DNA from: Bacteroidales bacterium
GTDB taxonomy: Bacteria > Bacteroidota > Bacteroidia > Bacteroidales > GCA-2748055
DNA length: 64,000 nt
Direction of reading: 5' to 3'
Assembly (NCBI GenBank): GCA_023138875.1
Contig: JAGLOO010000037.1
Coordinates: 23,471-87,470, forward strand
Part shown: piece after piece, positions 30,230 through 51,470 of the stretch
Numbering within the stretch: position 1 is the first letter of the stretch
Layout: the number at the start of each line of letters is the position of its first letter
Program-made: the position numbers and the translations under genes
Notes under the pieces: generated by a model
Databases searched by the model: none
What the model was told of the DNA's origin: nothing
What the model saw: only the letters and a program-made list of their open reading frames with translations

Positions 30230-30303
30230 AAAGACCACATACGAATTGAAGCCAAGCCATTATTGCATTAAATGATTGAGTATAAACTATAAATCAAATA
30301 GAG

Positions 30304-31939: not shown

Positions 31940-31953
31940 TGGTAAAATGTTTG

Positions 31954-32000
31954 TGTCGCGAGCGGGACTCGAACCCGCGTTATTTGGGATATGAGCCCAA
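31954..32000 (-). pseudogene. orphan tRNA-like 3' fragment (anticodon arm with CAU, variable loop, T arm, 3' acceptor strand)
   Basis: Reverse complement reads TTGGG-CTCATAT-CCCAA-ATAAC-GCGGG-TTCGAGT-CCCGC-TCGCGAC-A. No complementary 5' acceptor strand or proper D arm lies upstream. Confidence 0.6.
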
Positions 32001-32160
32001 GCAGGTACCATCTCCAGTCCACTGCGCAATGTCTTTATTTACAAAAGTCGGGCATGTGTTTCTAAAAGAAGGTTATAACAGGGACGTTTCCAGCATTATA
32101 ATAACCCACCAACACAAAGCAATCATTTAAATTTATTCGCGAATATAAATCGCAGCGAAT

Positions 32161-32955: not shown

Positions 32956-32975
32956 TAACCATTGATATAACAGCT

Positions 32976-34232
32976 ATGTTTCCAGCATACGACGATCAGG
33001 ATAAGCAGAGGATGCAAACGCTATTTAACACAATGAAGGACGTTGAGGTTGCTCCACAGGTAAGAGATGTAGGCCCATTCTCCTCACTGTTCAACTATGA
33101 GCAGGAGAAAGCGCGTCAGGATGAGTCATATGCCAAGCGGGAAGAGGTGAATCAGAAAATTGCACGGGGCAATTCTATCGTTGATGCATTCAGACTGATC
33201 ACCCAAGGGCTTACCGGATCTGCAGGGGCCACTATTCCAAAGGAAGCACCCAACCAATCGGTGATCCGTGCGCTGAATGATTTCATGGTACTGGACAGCG
33301 AGAAAAAGGAAGCGTTAGACCGGTTTCGGATGCTAGGGTTGAATGCCTCGGCTCGTGACCTACAATACAAGCATGGGCTTGAAGCAGAGGGCAGGCAGAG
33401 GGAGTTCACAGGAGAACAGGCAGAGCTTGGCAGGACCTTTCAGGCAGGGGAAGCAGAGAAGGGAAGAGAATTCAAGGCAGGGGAAATGGATATTAGTCGT
33501 GAATTCTCAGCTACAGAGGCAGCGAAAAGGGATAAGGCCAGGGCAGATCAGATTCATCTTACACAGAAAGGCCAGAGAAACCTTGAAAAATACAGGGCTG
33601 ACCAGGGCCATTACAGTTATCAGGACAGGGCATATTCCAATAGAAAATCCTACGACCTCAAAGGAGTAAGCATCACGCCTGATCTTCAAACAAAGATGAT
33701 ACGGGCATTGCAGATGATGTACGAAGGTGATCCTATGAAACCAAGAGCGCTGAAGGATATTGACAGGAATGAAAATGTCCAGGATGAATCTATCCGTGAT
33801 TTGTTCCTGGGAAATTGGGATGAGCTGAAGAAGTTAGTTCCTGAGCTATCTACTGCCACAGGGGTAACACCAGGTCAATCAACCGCACAACCACAACAGC
33901 AACAGAAGCGTAATCCAGCCGAAGGTGATAGTGTGTTACTGGAAAAGAAGCTCAAGGATGCTGCTAGCAGATTCAGCAAGGAGGGCAAACCCCGTAAGCA
34001 GATCAAGGATAACAAACGACCAGGGGTTTCACTTGAAAAGCAAGCAAAGCAGAATGATCGCATTGGCATAATGATGAGGGCGTTTAAAGAATTCGATCCC
34101 GACATTACCTGGGAAGAAGCATATAATGATGCGATGGAATTCCTGTACGGGCATTATCAAAAACGGCAGAGCTTTAATGCGAGTGGTCAGGGGACCATCA
34201 ATCAGTCAATGGCATATTATCCTCCTCAATAA
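32976..34232 (+). CDS. hypothetical protein, paralog B (longer, with internal REF/RTF short repeats and a Q-rich tract)
   Basis: 418 aa. Same conserved blocks as paralog A, plus GRQREFTGEQAELGRTFQAGEAEKGREFKAGEMDISREF and PQQQQK. Confidence 0.55.
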   Translation: MFPAYDDQDKQRMQTLFNTMKDVEVAPQVRDVGPFSSLFNYEQEKARQDESYAKREEVNQKIARGNSIVDAFRLITQGLTGSAGATIPKEAPNQSVIRALNDFMVLDSEKKEALDRFRMLGLNASARDLQYKHGLEAEGRQREFTGEQAELGRTFQAGEAEKGREFKAGEMDISREFSATEAAKRDKARADQIHLTQKGQRNLEKYRADQGHYSYQDRAYSNRKSYDLKGVSITPDLQTKMIRALQMMYEGDPMKPRALKDIDRNENVQDESIRDLFLGNWDELKKLVPELSTATGVTPGQSTAQPQQQQKRNPAEGDSVLLEKKLKDAASRFSKEGKPRKQIKDNKRPGVSLEKQAKQNDRIGIMMRAFKEFDPDITWEEAYNDAMEFLYGHYQKRQSFNASGQGTINQSMAYYPPQ

Positions 34233-34244
34233 AAGGCAGATACA

Positions 34245-37200: not shown

Positions 37201-40200
37201 ATAGTGTTGAGGAGGCCCGTGAAGCCTATCTATCTAACTATGAGGAAGGGTGGCAGGGACTTGGTGCTATCACCGAGATGTCAATGGTGGAGTTTAAAAA
37301 GTGGGTGGATAGTGGTACCCGAAAGCGCAAGCCGGTCAGCGAGATGAAGACTCTCAAGACCGAAACACCTGTCATTGACAAAGAAAAGGCTCACAACCGA
37401 TTGATTGAATTGGTTCGCGCATACAACAAGATCCCGAAAAGCCATACTGTAAAACGATCCGGAGCAATACAGACCATCAATAACCTTACCGGACAGCTTG
37501 GATACTCCATAACAAGAAATGACAAAGGCAAGCTCGTACCGCTAAACGAGAACAGCAAGCAGATACGCACAATCTCAGATCAGGTTGATTATATCTCCCT
37601 GGTAGAGATCGAGGATGAAGCGTTTACATCCTTTGCACATGATTTCTTGGTGAATGAAACGATATTGCACAACTTGGATGTTCCTATTTATGGTAAAGCA
37701 CTTTTCAAAGCAGCCAAAGATGCTATCAGTGGCAGAAAGAACGCTGAGAGTGACTTATTGATCCGAAACATTCAGGAGATGTACGATTCTGATAGTTTTA
37801 ATTATAGAGCCGGGGAGGAAACAGGTGCGTTCAACGTAACAGTAACAGAGGTAAACGACCTGATCGCAGAGCCAAAATTGATTAAATTTGTAGAAGAGAA
37901 TGGTGCTCTTGATATTACCAATATCGACAAAGCACTCGATGCTGGGCTTGTAACGCAGGATGAGTATGAAACAGTCAAAAAACAATTCGAAGATGAACTC
38001 AACCAACGAGAGCAAATCGAACGAGAATCCGATACCGAGCTTGGAGTCACAGAAGATGGTGACCGCGTTCAGGATACTCAGGGCCAGGAAAGCCAAGAAA
38101 TAGATAACGAATCGACCCAGGCGCTCGAATCCGAGATTGCCACCTTAAAAGAATCCCTTTCCGAAACCCGGAAAGCCAGGGAGTCCAAGAAAAAAGAACT
38201 TTCCAAGAGATTGCACCAGCAGCAGAGCATGTTCGCCGGTGAGAAACTTGCACGGATGGATCAAAACCTGTTCGAAGTTAAGCAGGATGGATCCAGGGAG
38301 AATATCGATAAGATCCTGGGTGAGTTTGATAACACTATTGCCGGGATTGAGAACCAGATCGAGCAAAAGGAGAAGCAGCTGGCCACCGCGAAAAAAGAGT
38401 CTGCAGGGCAATTGGAGCTGGAACCCACCAAGAAAACTGAAAAAATTGAAGATTTCGGAGAGAAGATCGGTGGGGCGCGGAAGGATCAGTGGGCCCAAAG
38501 CCTTGCATCACTCAACAAGCTGACCGATGATGACCTCATTTCCCTTCCGCTTGTTAAAGCAATTCCCGTACCCGATTACAAAGAACTGGTTGCATCCGGT
38601 AAGATGAACAAAAAAGAGGTTGCCCTACTTCACTATTACCGGACCAACATGAGCCGCAAGCCGGCAGAAACAGCACAGAACTACAAAAAAGCACGATGGC
38701 TCAAAGAGGCTAACCTGTACAAGCAAGTCTATGCCTGGATGCTGGATAAGAAAGGGTTTGAAGAGACTCACGGCAAAGCGTTCGTTGATTTGATGGATGA
38801 GCGTATATCATTCCATGCAGCAAAGGAGATTAAGGAATTCACAAAAATGTTGGAAGCACTTGGTTTCCCGGAAACCTTTGATGGTAACTTGAAGAAATTC
38901 AAGATAATGAAGTTCGATAGCCGCGAGGACTTCACTATTATAAATGGTCGGAAGATTATCGCAGATTTCAAAACCTATGATGAGGCTATCGCTGCATTGA
39001 AACACATTCTGGAGGAAACCGGGAACCAGCGCAGCAGGGTGACATTCGATGCCTGGAGCTTGAGTGGTAAGAAAGGTGTGATGGTGGGTAAAAAGGTTGG
39101 TCCGAGGAAATTCATTACCCTGGCCGGGCCTTTTGAAACAGGTAAGGAAGCGTTCAATTATATTAAGGATAATCAGGAAACCCTTGAGCAACAGCTTGCT
39201 GAAGAAAAAGTAATTCCCGCAGAACGACCGGATGTTGCAGAGGAGCGATCAGGCAAGGATCACCGTAACGGGAAGGATGTTACGCCCGATATGTTCCAGG
39301 AAGCGTTTGGGTTCCGGGGTGTGGAGTTTGGCAACTGGGTGGAGAATGCAAAACGACAGGGTGATCTTAACCTTGCTTATGATGCGCTGATGGACCTGGC
39401 AGAGATAACAAACATCCCATCCCGTGCAATATCTCTTGGTGGTGAGCTGGGCCTTGCGTTCGGAGCAAGAGGTAAGGGAGGAAAAGACAGATCCAGCGCA
39501 CATTATGAGCCTGATAAGATTGTGATAAACCTGACAAAAGTGTGGGGCGCAGGATCACTCGCACATGAATGGTGGCATGCCATTGATAATTATTTCTCCC
39601 GCCAAAGAGATAAGAAGCACGACTATCTGACCGAAAAACCTCGTTCGTTGCTTGTGAAGAAAGATGGTGAGTGGGTAGATGATGTTTCTGTTCGCCCGGA
39701 AGTTGTTGGCGTATTTTATGATGTGGCAAAAGCAATCAAGGATAGCGGGATGGTTGAAAGGGGCACCGAGTTAGACAGGCGCAAGACGAAAGATTACTGG
39801 TCACAGATGCGCGAGATGTCCGCACGGTCCTTTGAATCATATGTGAAGGATAAGCTGGATGAGCAGGGGATTAAAAACGATTACCTGGTCAGCTTCAAGG
39901 ATATGGTGGATTATATCGTTCAGACAGGCGCCGCAGAGGATGTGTACCCCTACCCCACCAAAGGAGAGCAACCGACTATCAACAAGTCTTTTGAGAATCT
40001 GTTTGATGTGATTGAGACGGTTAACGATGAGGCTGGTAATACTGTTCTGTTCAAAGTCGAAGAGCAAGCTGGTTCCTCCCAAGAGGGGGCATTCCCAGGC
40101 ACAGATGTACGCGATGTAGCTGAGCAGTTATCCAAACAGTTTAATACACCCATTGAGGTTGTCATAACCCGTCAAGAGCTGCCACCACATATTCAGAGAG

Positions 40201-43200
40201 CGATTAAGGATGACACACGCATCCCTGGCGTTTATGATGTGCAGAACGATAAGGTGTACCTGATCGCTCGTGAGGTCAAAAGCAAAGAGGAGGCACAGCA
40301 AACAGTATTCCATGAGATTGTTGGCCACAAAGGATTGAGGGAATTACTTGGGCATGAGTATGATCAGATGTTGACAGATGTGTACAACAGCATGTCGGAA
40401 GGTGACATATCCACCATGTCACGGGTGTACGGCACCACAGATCAGCTTGAGATAGCTGACGAGTATATTGCCCGGATAGCAGAGGATAATTCCAATCCGT
40501 CCATCATTGATAAGTTCGTTGCGAAGGTGCGCAGACTGATCCGCAAGGTATTTAAGATCAACTACACCAAAAAGGATATCATTGATCTGTTAAGTAAATC
40601 CAGGGAAGGATTGAAGAAAAAAGCAAGACCACAATTTGCTGGTGAATACCTGGATGTGCAGTTTAAGGCTGAAGAGGAAGGAGAAAAGAAGGACGGGCCG
40701 CCGATAAACATATTACAGAGCAAAGCCCAAAAGTTCAGGGAGAACTGGCAAGACAGGATGCTTTCTGTGCGAAATCTCCAGAAGCAAGTAGAAGAAAGAG
40801 GCGGGAAGATTACCGATTTTTCCAATGCCTACGAACGGGAGAACGCATCACACCAAATTGTCAGGGAGGCTATTGAAAGGTTCGATGATAAATATGAACT
40901 CCCATTATTGAAGGCTATCAGCGAAATTGAAAAAAGTGCAGATATGAACTTCAAAGAGGTCAATGAGTACATGAAGGCCAAACATGCTCTTGAGAGGAAT
41001 CTGGTAATGGCAAAACGAAACCCGAAATCAAATAAAACAAACTGGTCCGGGATCGAAACCGTGGATGCAGCAAAAACAGTAAGGAAGTATGAATCGAGAC
41101 TAACAAAGGATCAGATTAATGATTTTTGGAAAGCCGTCAATAACGCCACTCTATTTTCACTTGACAGGGCTATGGCAGATGGATTCATCTCGAAAGATTT
41201 GCATGATAAACTCACCAAAGGGGAAGATGCTTACAAGTTTTACGTTCCGTTAAGGGGCTGGGAGCCGTCAGAAACAGACGCGCTGATCGATTATATGGAA
41301 ACAGACGTAGGTAGGATTATGAACCCGTATCGTTCAGCCAAAGGTCGCACAACAATGGCAGACGACCCATTGAAGTATATCACAAATATGGCCCACACAG
41401 CTATTATTATGGGCGAGAAAAACCGTGTCAAGCAATATGCATCAGCCCTTGTGAGAAACAACAAAGGAATGAACGATCTATTTTCATTCAAGAAAGTGTA
41501 TTACGTGTGGGATGGCACATATGATGAGAATGGTAAAAAGAATCATAACGAAACGGTAATAAAACCTCCGCAGGAATTGTTTGATGAGGGTAAAGTAGAA
41601 ATCAAATTCAACTCCGACTACATGATCCGCAGGCCGGTCTCACACGCAAAAGAGCATGAGGTGGATATGTGGCAGGGTGGTGAAAAATATGTTCTGATCC
41701 TGCCGGCAGATGTGGCCAATGCGCTGAATAAAACACCATCACCAATAGAGGAAATGACTCGAAATGCAATGCGGTCAAAATGGACAGCTTGGGCACCGAT
41801 GTTTACAAGGTGGATAGCATCTGAATTCACCAGCAGGAATCCTGCTTTTATTCCGATCAACCAAATGCGTGATGTTGGATATGCGATGATGGCACACGCT
41901 ATCAAGGGAGAAAGGGGTGATGCTGGAAAATTCATTATGAACATGGGGAAGGCCCGATCAGCTATTATAAGAGATTTAAAAGGGAAGCTCGATCATAATA
42001 GTGAAGTCGGTAAGATGTATCAGGATTTTGTCCGGTTAGGTGGTCCTACAGGATGGATTCACCTCAGAGATGTTGAACAGTTGGAGAAAGATATCCAGAA
42101 GAAACTAAAAAGGTTAGAAGGCGGGAAGCCTGGTGCAAAGCAAGTGAGAGATTTATACCTAAAAGCAGGTGAGCTCCTGGAGCATTGGGCTATTCGATCT
42201 GAGAACCTTTCACGTTTCGCAACATATATCACAGCCATTCAAAACGGGAAAGGATCCAAACAGGCAGTTCAGGCAGCGAAGGATATAACCGTTAACTTTA
42301 ACCGGAAAGGACGAAACACATCGCTTGCCGGGGCATTGTTCGTATTCTTTAATGCAGGTGTCCAAGGTGGTCATAATTTCCTGAAACTAGGTAAAGATAA
42401 TCCTGGTAAGTTTATTGGTGTGGGAGCTGGATTCATGGCATTAGGCTTCCTGACCGCACTATTCAATCACCTGTGGGCCGGTGATGATGACGATGATACG
42501 ATGAACGATTACCAGGAGTTGAACGATTATCATAAGTTCAATAGTCTGGTCATACCTGTACCTGGGAAGGATCGATTCGTTAATATCCCCCTTCCCTTTG
42601 GTTTCAGGGCATTCAACGCATTAGGGGTACTTGCATATCAAAGCCTCGTATCGAAGGAGAAAGATATTGGAGAAGCGGTGAAGGATGGTCTGTCAAATAT
42701 AGGTACGGCTCTTTCCCCGGTAAATCCTATTGAATTTATTAACGAGGATGGAACCTTGACGGCCAGGCCGATTATACCAACAATCGGGGTACCGATTTTT
42801 GATATAGCAACAAATGAGGATTTTGCCGGTAACACTATAACCAGAACACCATTTACAACAGCGCAAGAAGGGTACCTGGCTGACTCCGGACTAGGGAAGA
42901 AGCATGTGAATAAGCAACTGAAATGGCTCACAGACGAGTTATTCAAACTTGGTGGAGGTCATGTAGCCGAAGATGACGATAAGCGGAATAAATATTATAT
43001 CGATGATGATGGCAAAAGTAAGCATGTTAGTGAAATATTTGATTGGAACCCGTCAAAAATCGAACATATGTTTGAGTATTTATTCGCAGGTCGAGGTAGG
43101 TTCTGGAATAATACACTCAAAACCAGTACCGGGATTCTAGAAGGTGCGCGTGATGTTATTGAGGGTGATAAGGGGATTGAGAAGATACTTTCCAATGTGA

Positions 43201-43550
43201 ACCCCAACACGGTTCCTGTGTTCCGGAGGCTGTATGTACAATCCTGGCAGAACTCTGTTTACACAAGGTATTACGATTTACTGAATTATATGGATGAGTA
43301 CGAGGCTGCCCTTAACACTGAATCCAGAAAAACCGGTATTGATAATGAGGATCTGATTGACCCATACCATCGGTTCGTTAAGGATGAAATCAAATATCTG
43401 AATAAAGACCTGAAATATATCGATGATCAACTTGACCTGTTGGATCCGGATAAAAACGAAAAGCTGAAAAAGCAGAGAGAATTATATATCAGGAACTTCA
43501 ATGATATGATAATGCGCTTCCAAGAGAAATATGACATAGATATGAAATAG
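34245..43550 (+). CDS. 3101-aa multi-domain 'polyvalent-like' protein (pyrophosphatase-like module, two HExxH zincin-like modules, terminal hydrophobic segments)
   Basis: Single uninterrupted 9306-nt ORF. YGYFKRSMGKDGDQIDVFLG (family-I PPase-like DGDxxDV). AHEWWHAID at nt 39564-39578. FHEIVGHKGLRELLG at nt 40311-40328. EDFGEKIGGARKDQW at nt 38448-38492. TM-like FIGVGAGFMALGFLTALF followed by DDDDD. Confidence 0.8.
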   Translation: MINDPPKKSGFQEKYGFDAFNSLPTINTNPDPVQTGVLGSEFVGESEEDKQFWRDWNIKNPGEQAKLAWEAGTKELKGGVKNMIADVAPLVMSAASPGTIPEIYQYEDWILGLQESAAKDFETAPEGAGLLYETVRMMPQMVGTMAALTTTPFTGGTSMAALPGILGMANIGMLSSSVYGRSLYDYDQYVAEKGLETNQFTRRGVAAASAAMEFIAEKLRLDFMLPKGMAGRMASQLFKSDPSLADDVMRKWAKNDPKVYQKFMGLGKTTLANMGQEGAEEFLTEVGQSIAQNVYLLGEDRLGAMDIVINAGEAAKGGAMMGGMLGPASYSSNQLYHKMRKNRNGATIIETEDGSVYEYLGVDSKDPNMATVMDNRLNMTSIHKDHIKDHRTMTDQELSEYLNVYKDSQENLPQLEDQMRRNTTKQHLNSVGQSIVNTEDGTPQVKVGKKRNGGYVFIKSQWEEMPGQTKMIVVDPETMELDMMDASQIGEIRTQSYDSWLEVQTDQMVGVQDQQRSAQMEQAVVEEQIKDEAGIPEFKEGEKITYQDREWIVDEVDTDGTLNVYANEEDGTPGETIPISPEMLSEVNRYTPEAPITETGEQQGQQKEKILNDGKNDYPVVDGKIQQPFTTEKAANSLVSKLKNEYPGLNFTVDIMDDGDPFTKNEYTITVEPINITNGEETTPETSQGVAPSQTGEDELKTTEPRYFKDEEDVTKGYIQGRILAAKSDGDLHGLSWENDPELDAMRKEKFPEAVPTYTYNGQEIEQDVARGIIDGATEATDLEQLVVKNDDATGQTYLDKISELQPETEEAPGVEQEEVSAPIDQSQEDAISEAEGLTQEPAAEETTQIESTPVQETEVEATPAKPVTETEQKLAAAEAEVDQNPSEAKIEAGNYKKGHVSIQGLDITIENPKGSTRSGTDQDGKKWSQIINNTYGYFKRSMGKDGDQIDVFLGENIESDKVFVVDQVDTKTGAFDEHKTMVGFDSVEEAREAYLSNYEEGWQGLGAITEMSMVEFKKWVDSGTRKRKPVSEMKTLKTETPVIDKEKAHNRLIELVRAYNKIPKSHTVKRSGAIQTINNLTGQLGYSITRNDKGKLVPLNENSKQIRTISDQVDYISLVEIEDEAFTSFAHDFLVNETILHNLDVPIYGKALFKAAKDAISGRKNAESDLLIRNIQEMYDSDSFNYRAGEETGAFNVTVTEVNDLIAEPKLIKFVEENGALDITNIDKALDAGLVTQDEYETVKKQFEDELNQREQIERESDTELGVTEDGDRVQDTQGQESQEIDNESTQALESEIATLKESLSETRKARESKKKELSKRLHQQQSMFAGEKLARMDQNLFEVKQDGSRENIDKILGEFDNTIAGIENQIEQKEKQLATAKKESAGQLELEPTKKTEKIEDFGEKIGGARKDQWAQSLASLNKLTDDDLISLPLVKAIPVPDYKELVASGKMNKKEVALLHYYRTNMSRKPAETAQNYKKARWLKEANLYKQVYAWMLDKKGFEETHGKAFVDLMDERISFHAAKEIKEFTKMLEALGFPETFDGNLKKFKIMKFDSREDFTIINGRKIIADFKTYDEAIAALKHILEETGNQRSRVTFDAWSLSGKKGVMVGKKVGPRKFITLAGPFETGKEAFNYIKDNQETLEQQLAEEKVIPAERPDVAEERSGKDHRNGKDVTPDMFQEAFGFRGVEFGNWVENAKRQGDLNLAYDALMDLAEITNIPSRAISLGGELGLAFGARGKGGKDRSSAHYEPDKIVINLTKVWGAGSLAHEWWHAIDNYFSRQRDKKHDYLTEKPRSLLVKKDGEWVDDVSVRPEVVGVFYDVAKAIKDSGMVERGTELDRRKTKDYWSQMREMSARSFESYVKDKLDEQGIKNDYLVSFKDMVDYIVQTGAAEDVYPYPTKGEQPTINKSFENLFDVIETVNDEAGNTVLFKVEEQAGSSQEGAFPGTDVRDVAEQLSKQFNTPIEVVITRQELPPHIQRAIKDDTRIPGVYDVQNDKVYLIAREVKSKEEAQQTVFHEIVGHKGLRELLGHEYDQMLTDVYNSMSEGDISTMSRVYGTTDQLEIADEYIARIAEDNSNPSIIDKFVAKVRRLIRKVFKINYTKKDIIDLLSKSREGLKKKARPQFAGEYLDVQFKAEEEGEKKDGPPINILQSKAQKFRENWQDRMLSVRNLQKQVEERGGKITDFSNAYERENASHQIVREAIERFDDKYELPLLKAISEIEKSADMNFKEVNEYMKAKHALERNLVMAKRNPKSNKTNWSGIETVDAAKTVRKYESRLTKDQINDFWKAVNNATLFSLDRAMADGFISKDLHDKLTKGEDAYKFYVPLRGWEPSETDALIDYMETDVGRIMNPYRSAKGRTTMADDPLKYITNMAHTAIIMGEKNRVKQYASALVRNNKGMNDLFSFKKVYYVWDGTYDENGKKNHNETVIKPPQELFDEGKVEIKFNSDYMIRRPVSHAKEHEVDMWQGGEKYVLILPADVANALNKTPSPIEEMTRNAMRSKWTAWAPMFTRWIASEFTSRNPAFIPINQMRDVGYAMMAHAIKGERGDAGKFIMNMGKARSAIIRDLKGKLDHNSEVGKMYQDFVRLGGPTGWIHLRDVEQLEKDIQKKLKRLEGGKPGAKQVRDLYLKAGELLEHWAIRSENLSRFATYITAIQNGKGSKQAVQAAKDITVNFNRKGRNTSLAGALFVFFNAGVQGGHNFLKLGKDNPGKFIGVGAGFMALGFLTALFNHLWAGDDDDDTMNDYQELNDYHKFNSLVIPVPGKDRFVNIPLPFGFRAFNALGVLAYQSLVSKEKDIGEAVKDGLSNIGTALSPVNPIEFINEDGTLTARPIIPTIGVPIFDIATNEDFAGNTITRTPFTTAQEGYLADSGLGKKHVNKQLKWLTDELFKLGGGHVAEDDDKRNKYYIDDDGKSKHVSEIFDWNPSKIEHMFEYLFAGRGRFWNNTLKTSTGILEGARDVIEGDKGIEKILSNVNPNTVPVFRRLYVQSWQNSVYTRYYDLLNYMDEYEAALNTESRKTGIDNEDLIDPYHRFVKDEIKYLNKDLKYIDDQLDLLDPDKNEKLKKQRELYIRNFNDMIMRFQEKYDIDMK

Positions 43551-43596
43551 CCTGCAGGAATAAATTCTCACTCGGTCCTGAGATGAAACAGAAAAA

Positions 43597-43620
43597 CCGC
43601 CTCCCGGTGAAGAGAGGCGG
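43597..43620. terminator. hairpin between the convergent giant ORF and 43723-43986 gene
   Basis: CCGCCTC-ccggtgaaga-GAGGCGG is a 7-bp GC-rich stem, with an A-run before it and TATTT after. Confidence 0.5.
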
Positions 43621-43722
43621 CCTATTTGATTGCTTTACGATTTTTAATTACTCCGGCATTCACCGGATAGGAAGATGGTGGACAATCTAAGAAGATAGTG
43701 AAATATGGCCACTATGTCCAGA

Positions 43723-43986
43723 TCAATGGTCCTGCAAGGATTCACTCAACTTCATTTCAGCCTCTAATTTTGCTCTTTCTACCTCTGCCTCGATAGCCGT
43801 TAGGAGGTCCATCATCGCATTGAAGTGCGTGATCATAGTGCCCCTGACCTCCCGATCACTGGCAGATTCAGAGCATAACCATTGCTCATAAAACTCGGCA
43901 AGGGATTTCTTGATGTTTGAAACTTCATCGGTATTGGTAAGGTTGCTGATAGCATCCTCCAGTTGTTCATTGTTTTGTGTTTTCAT
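43723..43986 (-). CDS. small helical hypothetical protein divergent from the XRE gene
   Basis: Start set at MKTQNNEQLEDAIS (43986), 49 nt downstream of a TACATTTG -7 box. No motif recognised. Confidence 0.45.
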   Translation of the reverse strand: MKTQNNEQLEDAISNLTNTDEVSNIKKSLAEFYEQWLCSESASDREVRGTMITHFNAMMDLLTAIEAEVERAKLEAEMKLSESLQDH

Positions 43987-44034
43987 AATGTTTAGTGTTT
44001 TAGAAATACAACAGTTTGTTAGATTATTACAGGA

Positions 44035-44042
44035 CAAATGTA
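44035..44042 (-). promoter_or_regulatory. candidate -7 box (TACATTTG) for the 43986-43723 gene
   Basis: Reverse complement of 44035-44042 matches TAnnTTTG. Confidence 0.35.
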
Positions 44043-44104
44043 ACTATATCAAATAACTAATACAACATTTACTATAATTATTTTACTAATATCACACAAA
44101 ATGT

Positions 44105-44112
44105 TATATTTG
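44105..44112 (+). promoter_or_regulatory. candidate -7 box (TATATTTG) for the XRE gene
   Basis: Matches TAnnTTTG 16 nt upstream of the ATG at 44128. Forms an inverted repeat with the divergent -7 box. Confidence 0.35.
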
Positions 44113-44127
44113 TAGAAAGACTTACTC

Positions 44128-44415
44128 ATGAATTACCTGCGTATAAAGGATCTACTGAAAGAGAAGGGATTAACCGCCAAGGACCTAGCCCTGGATCTCA
44201 ATATCACTGAGAATGGGATCAGCATGATTGTGAACGGTAAAAGACAGCCCCGCTTCGAATTGCTTCAGCAAATCGCAGACCGGTTAGATCTTGAGATTTG
44301 GCAGCTGTTCAAAGGGTCAGACAAGGCCGTGAAGGGGTGTATCGAGTACCAAGGGATTCTTTACCACATACAGACGAAGCAGGGGCTGGAGAGGCTTCTG
44401 AAGTTAATTGAGTGA
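44128..44415 (+). CDS. XRE-family helix-turn-helix transcriptional regulator
   Basis: LRIKDLLKEKGLTAKDLALDLNITENGISMIVNGKRQPRFELLQQIADRL is a canonical HTH_3 pattern. Confidence 0.8.
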   Translation: MNYLRIKDLLKEKGLTAKDLALDLNITENGISMIVNGKRQPRFELLQQIADRLDLEIWQLFKGSDKAVKGCIEYQGILYHIQTKQGLERLLKLIE

Positions 44416-44687
44416 TGGCCAGAAAGGATACCCTCTCGAAAGAATAAGTCCAGGCCCTTCTCCAAAACATATACGTCCCTCGCCTATCCCGCATTGCTGA
44501 GAATTGCTTAACTTGTGTTTGGCCGTGGAAGTGACATAAACTCCAACGTGGTAATTAAAACCTCTTAATCCGTTGCTATACAAGTATTACGTGACTGTAG
44601 AAGATAAAACCTGCTTTAAAGCGGGGTAACAAATCCGCACCCTTTCTGATTAAACCCTCAGAACAATAACCTGAAATCTCAATAATT

Positions 44688-45257
44688 GTGAAAGGAGTAA
44701 TCATTGTTGCCGCAGTAATAATTGTTCTGGTGATCATTCTGTCGATTAATCCCAAATCAAAGACAAGTAATTCAAATTCTACAGGAACTCGACCTGATAG
44801 ACAGGAGAGGATGAGGCGAGAAGCTCTTATACCGGTATTTCAGAGGCATAAGCAAATCTTAAACGAAAGCATAGGAATCATTGAATCATCTAAAAAGATC
44901 GATACTATAATAGGAAGGAAGCAGGTTGTCCTTGAGAAGCTAGATTGGTTTGACAAGAACTCTATTCCGGGTACTGAATTTGTTTTAATCCCCACCCCAA
45001 AAGATAGTCGACCAAAATTTATGAGCATCTATAATGCTAGGCTTGTTGATGTTGCTGAACATCTGGTGGTGGAAGCAGAGAGTAAAACGAAATCCTTAAA
45101 GACTAAATCTGGAAAGCAGAATCATATCAATAAAACTATCGATGCCATTCAGAAAATCACATCAGAGTTATATGCCGAAACGGAGAATTTCGAGGAGGCG
45201 GTTACTGAAATTCAAAAAGCATATAATAAATTGGAAAACCTAGATCTATCAGTATAA
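44688..45257 (+). CDS. N-terminally membrane-anchored helical protein
   Basis: GTG start. VIIVAAVIIVLVIILSI is a TM helix followed by ~150 aa of helical sequence. No motif recognised. Confidence 0.45.
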   Translation: MKGVIIVAAVIIVLVIILSINPKSKTSNSNSTGTRPDRQERMRREALIPVFQRHKQILNESIGIIESSKKIDTIIGRKQVVLEKLDWFDKNSIPGTEFVLIPTPKDSRPKFMSIYNARLVDVAEHLVVEAESKTKSLKTKSGKQNHINKTIDAIQKITSELYAETENFEEAVTEIQKAYNKLENLDLSV

Positions 45258-45394
45258 CATCAAACTGAATCATGAAACACCTCCGATCAATCACAATCGC
45301 TCTCCTGGCTATTGAATCAGGGGCCTGTTCACATCATTATGGGGTGAGCTATTGGCTGTGTGTGGATTGATTGGCAAATCATCTATAATCGAAT

Positions 45395-45901
45395 ATGGTA
45401 GAACTAACTGATGACTATCCAAATGGCTTAAGTGATGAAAATTTGTTGGCCAAAATTCAGGAATTTTCAAGTCTGGGATCGGGCTTTGGCAAAAGATCCC
45501 CAACATTTCAAGAAAGAGGGTATTATCTTCAGATGGCTCAGGTTGGTCAAAGTGAATATACGAGTCGGATCCAGGTAAGATTCGCAGATGAGACAAAATC
45601 CTTGAAAGCTGAGATATCTGAATTAAGAAAAAGCAATCAGAAATTCAGCAGGAAGGCAACTAGATTAAGCAGAGTTACTATTGGCTTCGCGATTGGCATG
45701 ATACTCTTAGCTGGGACAACTGTTTGGTATTCACAAAGGGATATGGAATCAGATCAGATCTGGAGAGATGATCAAATGACAGAATTGAAGAAAAATAATG
45801 AGTTTCTCCAGGAGCAGATCCGGATCAATGAGGAGTTGAATGGGAATATTCTCAGGTTGCTTGAACTGCAAGACCGAAGTGGTGAAATTGAATCAGAATA
45901 A
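45395..45901 (+). CDS. single-pass membrane protein with a coiled-coil tail
   Basis: 168 aa. Central TM (VTIGFAIGMILLAGTTVWY) followed by a heptad-like ELKKNNEFLQEQIRINEELNGNILRLLEL. Stop lies 6 nt before the TIR gene start. Confidence 0.5.
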   Translation: MVELTDDYPNGLSDENLLAKIQEFSSLGSGFGKRSPTFQERGYYLQMAQVGQSEYTSRIQVRFADETKSLKAEISELRKSNQKFSRKATRLSRVTIGFAIGMILLAGTTVWYSQRDMESDQIWRDDQMTELKKNNEFLQEQIRINEELNGNILRLLELQDRSGEIESE

Positions 45902-45907
45902 TGTTTT

Positions 45908-46861
45908 ATGGATAAGCAGAAGAACATATTCATCAGCTACTCAAGCAATGATCAGGACAAAGTTGGTATTTTAAAAGAATTGATAAAGATAAAAAATGGG
46001 CTAAATCCCATTGTCATTGCTGATAAACGAGAAGCCCAAAAGCCTCTAACTGACAAAGTAATTGATGGGATAGAAAAATCTGAAATAGTCGTTCCCATTA
46101 TAACGAGTAGATCAATTCATACACAATGGATGAACCAGGAGATCGGTTATTCCCTAGCGTTAAGTAGAAAGGTTACAGCTATTGTGGAAAGAGAACTACT
46201 CGATGATTTAAAAGGATTCATCCATAAACAGGTTGATCTTCCATATAATTTTTCAAGGAGTAATAATAGTGATGAAGAAAACAAAGGATTTGAATCTGCA
46301 TGCATACTTCTGGTCAACGATATCCTATTTAGCAAAGAAAAATCAATGACGTTGCCAAATCTTGCTGACAAGCATATGAATAAAATTAAGGAGAAGGTTG
46401 AAAGAGAAAAACTGGAAAGTGAAAAGGAGAGAATGCTCAATAGCCAAGAAATAGTGACTATTGCAAATCAAGCCGTGGATAATGAGCTTCTTCCTTATGT
46501 GCATGAGCAAAAGGATAAATGGAATCAGATAATTGGGAAGAATGTGCCCTATGAAACTAGTCCTAATGATCCAAATGGCATAATACTTAATCTAAGAGGA
46601 TTTGCTCTAAGTTTTGTTTGGAGGCAACCACATAGAAATTCAATTGAATCGGCCAAATTAACAGTAAGCCTTTGGGACGGTAGAATGTCTTTCATTCAGT
46701 TTAGATACCCGATTGAAGATCGTCCTGATATTATAAACGAAATGAAGTGTCAACCTTATTTAGACGATGAACTTCGTTTTAAGTGGAACAACTCAACGGA
46801 ATTGATGGATTCAAAACAAGTCGTTGATGTTGTATTCGAGTGGTTAGCTGAAGTATTCTAA
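45908..46861 (+). CDS. TIR-domain protein with an unknown ~170-aa C-terminal domain
   Basis: NIFISYSSNDQDKVGILKELI...KSEIVVPIITSRSIHTQWMNQEIGYSLAL matches the bacterial TIR (TIR_2/DUF1863-like) pattern, including the S..W...E putative catalytic Glu. Confidence 0.75.
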   Translation: MDKQKNIFISYSSNDQDKVGILKELIKIKNGLNPIVIADKREAQKPLTDKVIDGIEKSEIVVPIITSRSIHTQWMNQEIGYSLALSRKVTAIVERELLDDLKGFIHKQVDLPYNFSRSNNSDEENKGFESACILLVNDILFSKEKSMTLPNLADKHMNKIKEKVEREKLESEKERMLNSQEIVTIANQAVDNELLPYVHEQKDKWNQIIGKNVPYETSPNDPNGIILNLRGFALSFVWRQPHRNSIESAKLTVSLWDGRMSFIQFRYPIEDRPDIINEMKCQPYLDDELRFKWNNSTELMDSKQVVDVVFEWLAEVF

Positions 46862-46878
46862 TTTATATCTTTCGTGCA

Positions 46879-47124
46879 ATGTACGCCCTCACCTTCAAAC
46901 GATCCCGGTCAAAGCACATCTTGAAAGAACTCAACCATGTTGTGTCAATGGGCGAATCCTGGGATGCGACAACGGAAAAACTCATGATTACAGAGAAGGC
47001 CCTGTCCGTCTGTCGGTGGACCGTGGAGAAGCTGCAGAAAAAGATTTCTGTGCTCAGGCAGGAAATTATTGTGATTATTCCTGAGTGGAGGGAGTGGAAA
47101 AAGAATAGACAATACCAAATATAA
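46879..47124 (+). CDS. doubtful small ORF in a GC-richer spacer
   Basis: 81-aa ORF. Similar-length ORFs also exist on the opposite strand here, so coding status is uncertain. Confidence 0.25.
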   Translation: MYALTFKRSRSKHILKELNHVVSMGESWDATTEKLMITEKALSVCRWTVEKLQKKISVLRQEIIVIIPEWREWKKNRQYQI

Positions 47125-47164
47125 GAGCACAATTGTATTGCATGTAAGTTAAAATGACCAACTT

Positions 47165-47827
47165 ATGGAAGGAATGAAAATAAATTTAATAATTGCTATT
47201 ATAGGAGCGATTGTTACCTCTACCATCTCTGGTGTAAGCACTTACGTATCTCAAGATAACAAGTTTGGGGAACAAATTGAAAATTTATCCAAAGAAAGCA
47301 ACTCTAAAGGCCATCAAATTGAGATACTTACGGATGAAAATTCGACTTTGAAAAACGAAATCAATTCAAAAACGGAAAGTCATAATGCATTAATGGCAGA
47401 ACACAATGATTTAAAAGTAAAATACGCTAGATGCATCTCATCAGAAGGATCAATTACTGCAGTTGGGACAATTGATACGCGGGTTTATCAGGGACAATTA
47501 AAGACTGGAGATGAACTTGAATTTAAATTAACATCTAGTTCATTATTTATAAAAATAATCCGAGTTTCTGATAGTGGACCGATAATTTCTATTGCTGGTT
47601 GTGAAAACTATGTTACCGTTAACGAAGTAAGAATGCCAATGAATAATGAAAATCACTATCTCATTAAACCTCAATCTCCTTTAAGAGTTAGATTTACTGT
47701 AGGTTCCTGTGAAGACAATGAGAATATTGAGCCATCTCAAGTTGAAGAAATAATACTATTACTCAGGCAATTTAATGTAGATGAGCAAACCATTCAATTA
47801 GAGTATAATAGAAAATTTTTATTCTGA
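47165..47827 (+). CDS. membrane-anchored coiled-coil protein with a C-terminal beta-rich domain
   Basis: N-terminal TM (INLIIAIIGAIVTSTISGV), then the coiled segment ILTDENSTLKNEINSKTESHNALMAEHNDLKVK. Confidence 0.5.
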   Translation: MEGMKINLIIAIIGAIVTSTISGVSTYVSQDNKFGEQIENLSKESNSKGHQIEILTDENSTLKNEINSKTESHNALMAEHNDLKVKYARCISSEGSITAVGTIDTRVYQGQLKTGDELEFKLTSSSLFIKIIRVSDSGPIISIAGCENYVTVNEVRMPMNNENHYLIKPQSPLRVRFTVGSCEDNENIEPSQVEEIILLLRQFNVDEQTIQLEYNRKFLF

Positions 47828-47831
47828 ATTC

Positions 47832-48209
47832 ATGAAAAAAGCTACGTTAATATTTATCATTTTAGGTATTGTGGCGGCTAGTTGTGTCGCTCCAAAAAAA
47901 TTTCAAGCAACAACTGTAAACCTAAATAATGAGATTGATGTTTTAAGAAGTGAGACCAGAGTTCTTCGAAATGATAATTCCTCATTAAAAACGGAAATAA
48001 ATAGTATAAAGAATCAGATCTACAGACTTAACGCAGAAATTAAAAGCCTAGAGAATCAACTTCAATCCGATAAAAAAAAGCACAATGAGGATATTCAACA
48101 ACTAAATCAGCAGATTGAAAATTTTGAAACAAGAGATAGGAATTTAAGAAATTTGATTACAACCCTCCGGATTGAAGTTGCCTCATTAATGGCAGAAGTG
48201 AATAACTAA
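47832..48209 (+). CDS. coiled-coil lipoprotein
   Basis: MKKATLIFIILGIVAASC is a lipoprotein signal with lipobox. The rest is heptad-like (LRNDNSSLKTEINSIKNQIYRLNAEIKSLENQL). Start is 4 nt after the previous stop. Confidence 0.55.
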   Translation: MKKATLIFIILGIVAASCVAPKKFQATTVNLNNEIDVLRSETRVLRNDNSSLKTEINSIKNQIYRLNAEIKSLENQLQSDKKKHNEDIQQLNQQIENFETRDRNLRNLITTLRIEVASLMAEVNN

Positions 48210-48287
48210 TTATCGGCAACCAGGATCGCGCCAGGGTGGAGTCGGGGGAGAGTGTTTGGAAGGCGCAATAAAAAACACCATACTGAT

Positions 48288-48389
48288 ATGAAAGACATCG
48301 ATTACAAAGAGGAGGTACGGAAACTCATTGAGAGATTCCGGGAGATTGACCGGGAGCGGGACCAAGCTATAGGATCCAATCAGGAATAA
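48288..48389 (+). CDS. 33-aa small ORF (MKDIDYKEEVRKLIERFREIDRERDQAIGSNQE), copy 1 of a repeated mini-gene
   Basis: Below the ORF-track cutoff. Homologous to 50166-50273 at protein level and in the 10 nt upstream of the ATG (ACCATACTGA). Confidence 0.3.
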   Translation: MKDIDYKEEVRKLIERFREIDRERDQAIGSNQE

Positions 48390-48403
48390 ATTCAGAAAAC
48401 GAA

Positions 48404-48934
48404 ATGAACACTGAAAGAGCCTCATTGCACTATTATACATGGATTGAACATGCTGAAACTATTTTCATTGCAGCGTCAGAGAATTTAAAGCTATACCGTT
48501 CAGTAGTACAAGGTAGAGAGGTTGATGCTCGTGAGAGACAACTAGCGTTTTTTAGAGCAGCAGGATTACTGTTTGGAATATCAATTGAGCTCATCATAAA
48601 GGCTCGGATATTATATGAGAAACGGGAAGCTATCGAATCCGAAGAGATAAAATCACATGAAAATATTTCAAGGGAATGGCATCATAACGGACATAATGTT
48701 CTATGGCTTATCAAACACTACAGCATTGAACTTAATACGGATGAAAAACACCTGGTGGAAATACTTCAACCCTTTATGATTTGGGCTGGAAGATTTCCAT
48801 TTCCAAGAAAAGAGCATGACATACTCGATTACGAACAGGGAGAGAAGCAGCTTTCATACCCAAACAGCATTGACAAATATGTATTAAAGTTTATTGAAAG
48901 ACAAAAGTTAATTATGAGCAATAAGCACACATAA
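48404..48934 (+). CDS. helical protein, possibly HEPN-like
   Basis: 176 aa. LLFGISIELIIKARIL ... REWHHNGHNVLWLIKH resembles the HEPN helix pair (E.aLKA ... H.L..L) and contains an Rx6H spacing. By-eye call only. Confidence 0.35.
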   Translation: MNTERASLHYYTWIEHAETIFIAASENLKLYRSVVQGREVDARERQLAFFRAAGLLFGISIELIIKARILYEKREAIESEEIKSHENISREWHHNGHNVLWLIKHYSIELNTDEKHLVEILQPFMIWAGRFPFPRKEHDILDYEQGEKQLSYPNSIDKYVLKFIERQKLIMSNKHT

Positions 48935-48950
48935 ATCCCATAAATTTGGG

Positions 48951-49403
48951 TTGAAGGAATTCTCAGATCCTTACGTTTTCTTAACTTGTGGTAATTCAAC
49001 CCTGACCCGAGAAATCATGATAACATTTATTCTGAAAGTCAACCACAAGCAGGATGACAAAATTACCGCCTCCAGTTCTGAACAAAATGTGGAATTTCCT
49101 ATTTATGACAGCATTACATCTACCCACAATAAAGGCCATATGCCCGAAATTAGTCTTCATTGGTATCACGGTTTGACATTCAATACGATGAAATATCAGA
49201 AGTATAGAAACTTATTGAATGACCAGCTTGAAAGGGAAGAATTAGTCAGATTCCTTCGTAAAGATGCAATTGAAATGTTGGTTTCTGATGGAGATCTCTA
49301 CTTGAAGGCAAAAGAGTACCTCACCATAAGAGAGGATGTGGTTAAATTAGATCTGAAAATGTGGGGGATGGATGTCAACCGGATAGCACAAATTATTTTC
49401 TGA
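48951..49403 (+). CDS. hypothetical protein (middle gene of a three-gene operon)
   Basis: TTG start in the track, with a possible ATG start (MITFILKV) about 49017. 16 nt after the previous stop and 4 nt before the next start. Confidence 0.4.
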   Translation: MKEFSDPYVFLTCGNSTLTREIMITFILKVNHKQDDKITASSSEQNVEFPIYDSITSTHNKGHMPEISLHWYHGLTFNTMKYQKYRNLLNDQLEREELVRFLRKDAIEMLVSDGDLYLKAKEYLTIREDVVKLDLKMWGMDVNRIAQIIF

Positions 49404-49407
49404 TCCA

Positions 49408-49989
49408 ATGAGTATCCATGACTTTAATGACCGGTTTGGCGTTTCCGAACCCACCCCTACAGAATTCGAGAAGGCTGTAATGAAGCTGTTCATGTCACTA
49501 CCAGATGAACTAGTTAGTAAAAGCATCGAACATAATGTAAAAATACCCGGAATCGATGGTATTTATCAAATCGATATCAAGTTGACGTTTGAAGTTTTTG
49601 GCGCCAATTTTCTGGTATTGATTGAATGTAAACGATACTCCTCACCGGTGAAGCGAGAAGCAGTTCAAATTCTACATTCAAAGCTTTCAAGTCTAGGTGC
49701 ACAAAAAGGAGTCCTTGTGTCTACATCAGGATTTCAAAGAGGTGCAATTCAATATGCAAAAGAACACGGAATAGCACTGCTCCGGATTGCTGCGGGTAGA
49801 ATGACCTATGAAACTAAAAATATTTTCAGTGATGGAGAGTACCAGTATTTTAACGGAACGGAGGCCTTCCCAATATATCGAATTGAAGAATCCAGTCCTG
49901 GTTCAATTTCAATTACGATGCTAATTGATGATCATATTAACGAATTTGGAGTTTCCCTATTCAAATCAAGTGAAAATGAAAATAATTAA
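49408..49989 (+). CDS. Mrr-like (PD-(D/E)xK) restriction endonuclease-domain protein
   Basis: FEKAVMKLF...GIDGIYQIDIKL...FLVLIECKRYSSPVKREAVQILHSKL...GVLVSTSGFQRGAIQYAKEHGIAL is collinear with the Mrr catalytic domain (D...ExK). Confidence 0.75.
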   Translation: MSIHDFNDRFGVSEPTPTEFEKAVMKLFMSLPDELVSKSIEHNVKIPGIDGIYQIDIKLTFEVFGANFLVLIECKRYSSPVKREAVQILHSKLSSLGAQKGVLVSTSGFQRGAIQYAKEHGIALLRIAAGRMTYETKNIFSDGEYQYFNGTEAFPIYRIEESSPGSISITMLIDDHINEFGVSLFKSSENENN

Positions 49990-50036
49990 AACCGGCAGCT
50001 AGGGTCCAAATCACCCTAAGAGGTCAAAATAAATCC

Positions 50037-50105
50037 ATGACCACCAAAGAAAAAATCCTCCAGCTAGAGAAGGACCTGGAGGAGCTTATGAAGAAAATGG
50101 AATGA
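50037..50105 (+). CDS. 22-aa small ORF (MTTKEKILQLEKDLEELMKKME), doubtful
   Basis: Below the track cutoff. Weak resemblance to ATTEKLMITEKAL...EKLQKKISVL within 46879-47124. Confidence 0.2.
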   Translation: MTTKEKILQLEKDLEELMKKME

Positions 50106-50165
50106 TTCTCTGGCTGATATTTCCATCTTCATCACATCAACTTATATGACCAATACCATACTGAA

Positions 50166-50273
50166 ATGAATGACCAGGAAATTAAGGAAGAGGTTCAGGG
50201 GTTAATTGTACGGTTCCAGAAGGTTGACCAGGTGAATTTGATAATAATTAACTGCTATTTAACCGGTTTTTAA
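50166..50273 (+). CDS. 35-aa small ORF (MNDQEIKEEVQGLIVRFQKVDQV...), copy 2 of the repeated mini-gene
   Basis: Shares M.D...KEEV..LI.RF...D and the upstream ACCATACTGA with 48288-48389. Confidence 0.3.
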   Translation: MNDQEIKEEVQGLIVRFQKVDQVNLIIINCYLTGF

Positions 50274-50383
50274 CATTTTTATATTCAATACTTGCTTTTT
50301 TGTGCTCGATATCAGTATATTTAAGGTAACAAAAGTATTGGAGTTGCGTTAAAATATATAACCGATTTCAATATTTGTAGCCC

Positions 50384-50662
50384 ATGAACGTAGCTAAAAT
50401 TCAAAAACCTCAGCAAATCATGGCCCCGAATCCATCTGGATTGAGAGGAAAACACTATTTTAGCGCTTCTAACATTACACCACAATACATGCTAGAACTT
50501 ATTCGTTATTTCGCTCGTGCCAAATCAAGTGGTACGATATCTGACGACCAATTTACTGCCTTGATTACACTAACTCTATCCAATTTTGTTGAAGCTCAAG
50601 TTGAAAGCAAGGTGAACAGGGTAGTAATCGATCGGGTTGAACATGTGTTTAAGGTTCTGTAG
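50384..50662 (+). CDS. hypothetical protein
   Basis: 92-aa ORF. Its stop lies 1 nt before the likely start of the next gene. Confidence 0.45.
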   Translation: MNVAKIQKPQQIMAPNPSGLRGKHYFSASNITPQYMLELIRYFARAKSSGTISDDQFTALITLTLSNFVEAQVESKVNRVVIDRVEHVFKVL

Positions 50663-50663
50663 T

Positions 50664-51128
50664 ATGTGTCCAAAAAAAACCACACAGCCTGCCGTCCAGG
50701 ATAATTCGAAATCAGACGTGAAAAGCACCCAAGCTAAGATTCCTAAGGACGGAAATCCTGAGACTATTGATCCTGAAGTAATAGAAGGGCTCCCCCCGGA
50801 AATTAAAAAGGTGTTTGAATTCGGTATGCTTCAAATGCGAAGTGGCCCACATAATCCAATTATGGATAAATTGGAACCACAGCACATAGATAAGATCCTT
50901 AACATCGCAGAGAAGGACGAGGAACATTCTGACAAACAGACAACAAAACGTAGAAGATATAACCTGGTATATGTACTTCTGGGGATTTCCGTCTTTATAT
51001 TTTTGATTGTTTATCTAATCGAAATCGATAAAGAACTACTTCTAAAGATATTAGCTGCAATTACCCTTTTCGGAGCTGGTTTCGGTGGTGGATATGGGTA
51101 TAGGTATTTTCGTTCCGAATCTGAATAA
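50664..51128 (+). CDS. membrane protein, DUF2335-like
   Basis: Start set at MCPKKTT (50664). PPEIKKVFEFGMLQM...ILNIAEKDEEHSDKQ, followed by two TM helices (LVYVLLGISVFIFLIVYLI, LAAITLFGAGFGGGYGY), resembles DUF2335 architecture as I recall it. Confidence 0.4.
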   Translation: MCPKKTTQPAVQDNSKSDVKSTQAKIPKDGNPETIDPEVIEGLPPEIKKVFEFGMLQMRSGPHNPIMDKLEPQHIDKILNIAEKDEEHSDKQTTKRRRYNLVYVLLGISVFIFLIVYLIEIDKELLLKILAAITLFGAGFGGGYGYRYFRSESE

Positions 51129-51228
51129 TCTCCTTCTTCACTATCTTCCTGCAATTGGTTAAGTCAATCTCCTGGTCAATCCTCTCCAGGTCCAGATCGA
51201 TATAAATATCTGTCACTCCCTCCTTGCC

Positions 51229-51252
51229 GTGACCCGGTGACCCTCTTAACCC
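51229..51252 (+). repeat. three closely spaced TRACCC direct repeats (GTGACCC-G-GTGACCC-TC-TTAACCC)
   Basis: Read directly. Same half-site as in the 21-nt motifs at 24464 and 51373. Confidence 0.45.
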
Positions 51253-51372
51253 TCGATGCTATAAAAAAGGGCGGCCAGTTCCCCGGCCACCCTAATAGGT
51301 CAAATATCTCCGCTATGGCAGCGTAGATAAGACAAAGGTAAGGAATAAAGCTGACATAGGAATCCCGAAATA

Positions 51373-51393
51373 ATGACCCCCATAGTGACCCCG
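51373..51393 (+). repeat. 21-nt motif ATGACCCCCATAGTGACCCCG (right-end copy)
   Basis: 19/21 identical to 24464-24484 in the same orientation. Confidence 0.45.
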
Positions 51394-51405
51394 GTAAAAA
51401 AGAAA

Positions 51406-51432
51406 CCCCTGTAATCTTTTGAACTACAGGGG
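51406..51432. terminator. bidirectional hairpin terminator just downstream of the tRNA-Asp 3' end
   Basis: CCCCTGTA-atcttttgaac-TACAGGGG, flanked by an A-run and CTTTTTCT. Confidence 0.6.
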
Positions 51433-51448
51433 CTTTTTCTGTCTAATT

Positions 51449-51470
51449 GCGGTCTGGACGGGACTCGAAC
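51449..51470. repeat. proximal att direct repeat (within the tRNA-Asp 3' end)
   Basis: GCGGTCTGGACGGGACTCGAAC is identical to 24331-24352. Confidence 0.85.

Follow-up and report, generated by a model that had tools for sequence, protein, structure and literature searches.

HEPN domains fused or linked to restriction endonuclease (REase) and HKD DNases and to restriction-modification (R-M) operons form a published theme of 'multi-pronged defence', with PrrC-PrrI as its paradigm (PMC3710099). HEPN toxins with varied antitoxins are likewise well known (PMC3710099, PMC7641770), and experiments in E. coli have validated phage defence by single proteins, obtained in a selection from the E. coli pangenome, that are DNases only and have no methylase (Vassallo et al. 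2022, PMC9519451). The AF0298-type HEPN-T proteins have lost the His of the Rx4-6H motif and carry Ex3[KR] and, on the N-terminal side of the basic residue, another conserved His, and for these Anantharaman et al. 2013 propose an alternative active site (PMC3710099). Here we compare with these systems a block of three genes, termed g1, g2 and g3, at 48404 to 49989 of a 64,000-nucleotide stretch (the window, to which all positions refer) of contig JAGLOO010000037.1 from a Bacteroidales bacterium (assembly GCA_023138875.1). We favour, with moderate confidence, a reading in which this block is the distal cargo of an island at a tRNA-Asp gene, its defence-type genes being probably co-transcribed but modular, and not an obligate three-part machine. 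Because the trio was found nowhere else, and each of its recognisable genes also occurs alone in other genomes, we rate it a modest variant of a familiar theme, one that leaves the present view of defence islands as it is and fills in a corner.

A short Mrr-type nuclease and a HEPN-related protein

The last gene, g3 (49408..49989, forward strand in the open reading frame (ORF) listing), encodes a 193-aa stand-alone short Mrr_cat nuclease of the PD-(D/E)xK type, which matches the Pfam model Mrr_cat (PF04471) at 2e-15 (57 bits, cut-off 21). The match covers residues 16-126 and is followed by a variable tail of about 65 aa, and no reader domain, N-terminal winged helix (Mrr_N) or second domain was detected with Pfam, PADLOC, PHROGs or NCBIfam. 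These results bear out the initial annotation, in which g3 was essentially just the catalytic domain of an Mrr-type nuclease and lacked a reader, and the motifs that it quoted are all present (IECKRY and GVLVSTSGFQRG in g3, SIELIIKAR and REWHHNGHNVLWL in g1). The PADLOC models mREase_IV (317-544 aa) and PDC-S02 align to g3 only over the catalytic part, which is C-terminal in mREase_IV. A search of 5.8 billion protein clusters returned 204 homologues, nearly all of 160-240 aa, and in a 40-sequence alignment F20, E21, D56, E73, C74, K75 and R83 are invariant, all of them kept in g3. We rejected the idea, raised with the first description, that g3 is a fragment or the frameshifted C-terminus of a longer Mrr, as the starts of homologues of equal length line up with its N-terminus and the family consists uniformly of short proteins. 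Judged from these alignments, g3 is a whole member of a short (~180-215 aa) reader-less Mrr_cat family, and as such a new member of a known, common family.

Similar to E. coli Mrr and other Type IV enzymes (PF04471; PADLOC mREase_IV), g3 has the PD-(D/E)xK core with all signature residues and no cognate methyltransferase; unlike E. coli Mrr it has neither Mrr_N nor another reader, and belongs to a separate family of ~180-215 aa with a short variable tail. Unlike classical R-M systems, no methyltransferase is encoded with g3, none being found within the trio or among the flanking ORFs. In the host genome PF00145 (C5-methylase) had no match, while PF01555 and PF02384 (N6-type methylases) had one match each, both on other contigs (C41, C71), so the earlier view that this is not classical restriction-modification stands. 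In being little more than a DNase domain g3 also resembles the single-gene nucleases of Vassallo et al. 2022 (PMC9519451), the likeness being one of design alone. It is the one Mrr_cat gene of its genome, and a PDB sequence search with it gave no match. All seven of the seven g3-relative loci examined stand alone in unrelated settings: on short metagenome contigs, at a prophage edge by lysis and portal genes, beside nicotinamide adenine dinucleotide (NAD) biosynthesis genes and beside an insertion sequence element. We propose that g3 would act as an autonomous short Mrr-like DNase, cutting foreign and most plausibly modified DNA with no cognate methylase, and the short Mrr_cat-only family as a whole poses the question of how a target is chosen without a reader and how the host tolerates the enzyme.

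The first gene, g1 (48404..48934, forward strand in the same listing, ATG start), encodes a 176-aa all-helical protein with no match in Pfam, NCBIfam, PADLOC or PHROGs; a scan of 126 relatives against PADLOC and NCBIfam likewise gave nothing usable. Whereas a word-indexed search found 2 homologues, an exhaustive profile search found 191 representative clusters (~175-200 aa), and the family is thus sparse (~190 clusters at 50% identity) and mainly metagenomic. No g1 relative was found in phage and plasmid collections or in a viral contig scan. In an alignment of 126 sequences E62 is invariant and K66, H97, W127, G129 and P134 are each conserved in at least 90%, giving the set E62-x3-K66, H97 and W127-A-G-R130-F-P-x-P134, in which R130 is the Arg of an 'RYP'-type motif, and a family consensus of ...G.A.EN.xK...GH.L..L...L..RL...WAGRYP.P. 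Ex3[KR] with a second conserved acidic residue is therefore present in the family. A conserved Rx4-6H was not found in it: R90-x6-H97 is present in g1, but R90 varies even in the nearest homologues (KKWGGSRDGHN), and what is conserved is H97 and, apart from it, R130. The R/H pair that had been put forward as the HEPN-like motif of g1 is thus replaced by E62, K66, H97 and R130.

We call g1 HEPN-related because of profile-profile evidence. When the 126 members were scanned with Pfam the only recurrent family was PF05168 HEPN (6 of 126, best 5.5e-4), the rest being scattered noise. With hhalign, the 126-sequence family alignment matched 25 bona fide PF05168 proteins from relatives' genomes at 95.9% probability (E = 6e-9, 93 columns), with E62x3K66 aligned to EKxxK, H97 to the 'tHdL' His and R130 to the 'RYP' Arg; all controls (one reversed and eight column-shuffled) reached at most 0.2% probability. 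An AlphaFold (AF2) model from 70 sequences is all-alpha with two long N-terminal helices (predicted local distance difference test (pLDDT) score 93.9, predicted template-modelling (pTM) score 0.89), and in a Foldseek search of the PDB with g1 the HEPN entries 3o10, 4nqf and 1ylm came up only as non-significant matches (E 0.8-2.4, template-modelling (TM) score 0.27-0.42). PDB sequence searches with g1 profiles gave no match. The HEPN-like character first suggested for g1 is therefore upheld by the profile alignment and not by fold comparison, and on the profile evidence its family is homologous to classical HEPN (HEPN-T/PF05168-like).

Similar to HEPN-T and classical HEPN proteins (PF05168; AF0298, 2hsb; ST0689, 1wol; PMC3710099), g1 is all-alpha with Ex3K in the second long helix, its conserved His opens the next core helix and is followed by the Arg of the 'RYP'-type motif in the same order and spacing in the profile alignment, and the neighbours of its family often include R-M genes and DNases. 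The family pattern of Ex3K, His and Arg agrees with the description of AF0298-type HEPN-T in PMC3710099. Unlike classical HEPN domains (about 125-135 aa), the g1 family is 175-200 aa long, has additional short helices between the core helices, has no curated model and bears an extended WAGR[FY]PxP signature. Unlike the HEPN-MNT toxin-antitoxin module, g1 has no minimal nucleotidyltransferase (MNT) partner next to it, and a Pfam scan found no NTP_transf_2-type gene in the cargo block. The family is thus in none of the four curated libraries searched and larger than classical HEPN, yet inside a described clade and genomic theme. We suggest that g1 would be a divergent HEPN-T-type RNase or RNA-binding module using the Ex3K/His/Arg site of the AF0298 type. 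If g1 is active, the defence and toxin repertoire gains a HEPN-type family, so far uncatalogued, with ~190 clusters (50% identity), and g1 offers a tractable case for RNA cutting by a HEPN protein without Rx4-6H, via the alternative His/Arg site proposed in 2013.

As in the published HEPN-DNase loci, g1 lies beside a restriction-type DNase in mobile cargo, and its relatives lie beside REase-fold, phospholipase D-type (PLD) and R-M genes; unlike in those loci, g1 and g3 are separate genes with an orphan between them, their pairing is not conserved, and there is no ATPase or R-M complex to regulate g1. By analogy with PrrC, the adjacency of g1 and g3 may offer two-pronged protection, DNA attack coming first and RNA-level shutdown serving as back-up. 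The setting is defence-like, with low-GC cargo, a TIR gene nearby and an island bounded by a tRNA-Asp repeat. The proposal that the trio is a defence module thus gains from its place in mobile cargo beside a TIR gene with no adjacent methyltransferase and loses from the lack of conservation of the trio. The gene layout, domain assignments, conserved positions, island setting, absence of synteny and surroundings of g1 relatives are shown here, and any enzymatic activity, defence role, abortive infection or cooperation between the genes is inferred.

The orphan gene and the packing of the block

Between these two lies g2 (forward strand, ending at 49403), which encodes 150 aa from a TTG at 48951 in the ORF listing, or 128 aa from the ATG at 49017, where the public gene call puts its start. 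The three genes are co-directional. The stop of g2 at 49403 lies 4 nt before the ATG of g3 at 49408; from the g1 stop at 48934 to g2 there are 16 nt if the TTG is used and 82 nt if the ATG is used. The gaps of 16 and 4 nt reported at the outset were accordingly confirmed, the first of them hinging on the TTG start. In the 473-nt gap between g1 and g3 the frame of g2 is free of stops for 155 codons. Markov simulations of local composition yielded a run of this length in only 4 of 5000 cases, and 14 and 15 stops interrupt the remaining two forward frames across this gap. Because a run of this length was so rarely simulated we treat g2 as a real gene and not a chance ORF, and it is probably coding.

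As the initial annotation had stated, g2 is an orphan: among the 5.8 billion protein clusters it matched itself only, Pfam, PHROGs, NCBIfam and PADLOC gave no family and no MNT or helix-turn-helix (HTH) antitoxin signature, and phage records gave no match. Two candidate relationships were rejected, one to HEPN, as g2 is unrelated to the HEPN profile and hence not a diverged copy, and one to the small gene that precedes g3's nearest homologue. We consider that g2 might be a lineage-specific accessory, possibly a regulator or inhibitor of one neighbour. A pattern search found a candidate -7 box, TAAATTTG, between g1 and g2 (48941..48948, forward strand) that fits the Bacteroidota TAnnTTTG; if functional it would give g2 and g3 a promoter of their own, with g2 starting at the ATG at 49017. 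TAnnTTTG occurs 48 times across the whole window where 52 are expected, i.e. at chance level, so TAAATTTG is a lead only, and a promoter and terminator scan was also at chance level.

This packing bears directly on whether the trio could be one obligate defence or abortive-infection system in which g2, as sensor or adaptor, would link g1 as HEPN RNase with g3 as Mrr DNase, an explanation that we consider unlikely. The tight co-directional arrangement with its 4-nt g2-g3 junction speaks for it, as does the fact that similar mini-ORFs in the spacers bracket the trio as a single block, one upstream beginning MKDIDYKEEVRKLIERFREID (48288..48389, forward strand) and one downstream that resembles it, beginning MNDQEIKEEVQGLIVRFQKVD (50166-50273). 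These mini-ORFs may be cassette boundary marks or leader-like peptides. Moreover, g1 relatives repeatedly precede nucleases of different folds, which resembles effector swapping. What weighs most against an obligate three-part system is the lack of synteny: the expectation that the trio would be syntenic elsewhere did not hold. Searches of the 5.8 billion protein clusters and of 48 genus relatives, together with genome and metagenome scans, recovered neither a second copy of the trio nor any g1+g3 pair, and the arrangement of the three genes is unique and unreplicated. In addition the closest g3 homologue (66% identity) has upstream of it a gene of 135-160 aa that is unrelated to g1 and g2, with no g1 there, and the g1 and g3 families each occur alone in other genomes. 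Because g2 has no homologue at all, an obligate system would also have no conserved sensor.

Neighbourhoods of g1 relatives

Relatives of g1 are rare, occurring in roughly 1% of ~940 phylum genomes sampled and in none of 60 relatives of the host; an extra class-level genome search gave no new contexts, and a metagenome scan with a narrow g1 alignment gave one new locus. Our neighbourhood survey covers about 14 independent contexts. On three metagenome contigs a DUF434+PIN-like COG2454 nuclease (COG2454 is classed as PIN-like in PMC5499597; a PDB sequence search with this neighbour gave no match) follows the g1 relative by 1-4 nt, in one genome a PLDc_2 nuclease follows by 17 nt, in another a YhcG PDDEXK nuclease follows by 88 nt, and in our window the Mrr gene g3 is reached via g2. 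Type IIG R-M enzymes lie nearby in two lineages. In one lineage of two genomes (Fontibacter, Indibacter) the g1 relative is preceded by a DUF4238 gene and followed after 10 nt by a HigA-like HTH gene, the 129-aa product of the latter matching Pfam HTH_3 at E = 0.002, which is under the curated cut-off. One context has a pentapeptide-repeat membrane protein downstream, one a Bro-N protein downstream, and six lineages have no evident partner. A nuclease thus directly follows on the same strand in 4 of the about 14 contexts, from four families (Mrr, YhcG, PLD and PIN-like COG2454), and two close g1 relatives differ in that the PLD gene is present in one and missing in the other. These recurring downstream nucleases are suggestive of a functional affinity of the g1 family.

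The HigA-like gene raises the question of whether g1, as a HEPN-type toxin, and g2, as a novel antitoxin behind it, make up a toxin-antitoxin-like pair, with g3 an independent neighbour. HigBA-type modules have the toxin gene first, and g2 comes directly after g1 just as the HigA-like gene comes after its g1 relative in Fontibacter and Indibacter. Nevertheless most g1 relatives have no small downstream partner, g2 has no HTH or MNT signature or family match, and g2 is joined more closely to g3 (4 nt) than to g1, leading us to judge such a pair quite unlikely. The nuclease neighbours could instead be read as meaning that g1 is not an RNase but a non-catalytic HEPN-like regulator or immunity factor, an antitoxin or inhibitor restraining the downstream nuclease. 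Its relatives do lie directly upstream of four nuclease types, its family has not conserved the canonical Rx4-6H motif of RNases, non-catalytic HEPN binders exist (PMC3710099), and in metagenome loci the relative comes after a SUKH/SMI1-type immunity-like gene. We nonetheless hold such a role to be very unlikely, given that strict conservation like that of the polar set E62, K66, H97 and R130 typically marks an active or ligand site, that short Mrr_cat relatives of g3 live without such a partner and that many g1 relatives have no nuclease neighbour. The many partner-less relatives of g1 and g3 weigh against both a toxin-antitoxin pair and restraint of the nuclease by g1. A further idea is that the g1 family is an unrecognised HEPN-derived partner plugged upstream of interchangeable nucleases (Mrr, YhcG, PLD, PIN-like COG2454), which it would gate or complement. 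This seems to us improbable; if true, two-component nuclease defence would gain a new modular class, in which the trio in our window would be a variant with an orphan adaptor.

The modular reading that we favour, in which g1 and g3 are separate defence-type genes that share a cargo block, must itself be set against several observations that weigh against it. The close spacing of g2 and g3 (4 nt), and also of g1 and g2, could signal a real coupling that it underrates. Despite the confident model of g1, Foldseek searches with two g1 models against the PDB and with one against BFVD gave nothing significant, and g1 alone has no direct Pfam HEPN match. HEPN domains of the PF05168 type are not proven RNases. 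Moreover, some HEPN domains are non-catalytic binders of nucleotides or RNA (PMC3710099). Finally, clustering in defence islands alone could explain part of the adjacency of g1 relatives and nucleases, which was seen in only 4 of about 14 contexts.

The tRNA-Asp island and observations at related loci

The island that carries the trio spans ~27.1 kb (24331..51470) and lies between two copies of a 22-bp direct repeat, one at 24331-24352 and one at 51449-51470, of which the second forms the 3' end of a tRNA-Asp gene. It encodes a tyrosine integrase (24518-25789), a Prim-Pol/AAA replication protein and a giant protein of 3101 aa, together with low-GC cargo. The trio lies in the block at its right end, which has a GC content of ~36-40% compared with 47-50% in the flank past the tRNA; the other genes of this block encode an XRE regulator, a TIR-domain protein and envelope coiled-coil proteins, and the neighbour of g1 besides g2 is a coiled-coil lipoprotein.

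The right boundary of the trio cargo was placed at 49979..50105 (forward strand) by BLAST and alignment against a sibling element on contig C41 of the same genome and by an internal repeat. Right at and after the g3 stop, 49979-50030 resembles the start of the right-end segment of the island, and 50037-50105 is the remnant 3' end of a second XRE/HTH gene, whose product ends in ...EKDLEELMKKME before the stop. In the sibling element (L078) an XRE gene is followed by a spacer matching 50068-50153 of the window, then one cargo gene and then the right end; the parts of the window concerned are 49979-50153 and 51262-51414. Because of this C41 layout, the XRE remnant and the end-like segment, we place the trio at the outermost end of a variable block of cargo, which closes at an apparent former element end. 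These resemblances suggest that the island is composite, two related elements having accreted in tandem before a deletion. Besides the contig of the window, two contigs of the same genome hold related element ends, both without the trio. A genus-wide DNA search (48 other species) gave matches in 7 species, confined to the final ~190 nt of the island and with no trio. The host genome has four classical PF05168 HEPN genes elsewhere (contigs C39, C41, C5 and C59), and the one on C41 sits ~7 kb from the sibling element.

At the loci of g1 relatives some further features were seen. On metagenome contigs (L002 369-1628; L001 405-1743) the g1 relative comes after a gene for a SUKH/SMI1-KNR4-like domain and another conserved domain, the two being separate genes in one contig and a fused 419-aa protein in another, a context like that of polymorphic-toxin immunity. 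At another locus a 229-aa protein with a GS...DLD nucleotidyltransferase-like motif and no Pfam match is encoded on the opposite strand ~1.2 kb from the g1 relative (L057 5763-6452, minus strand); it could be a remote trace of HEPN-MNT pairing. In Fontibacter flavus (L012 245-4933) the type IIG R-M enzyme by the g1 relative is 1562 aa long and is interrupted by a peptide insert repeated several times (…TLTPRPPLPKGEGE…GVR…) and by a DUF559-like segment, whereas its 1253-aa homologue in Cyclobacterium xiamenense (L011 2201-5962) has neither the TLTPRPPLPKGEGE inserts nor the DUF559-like segment.

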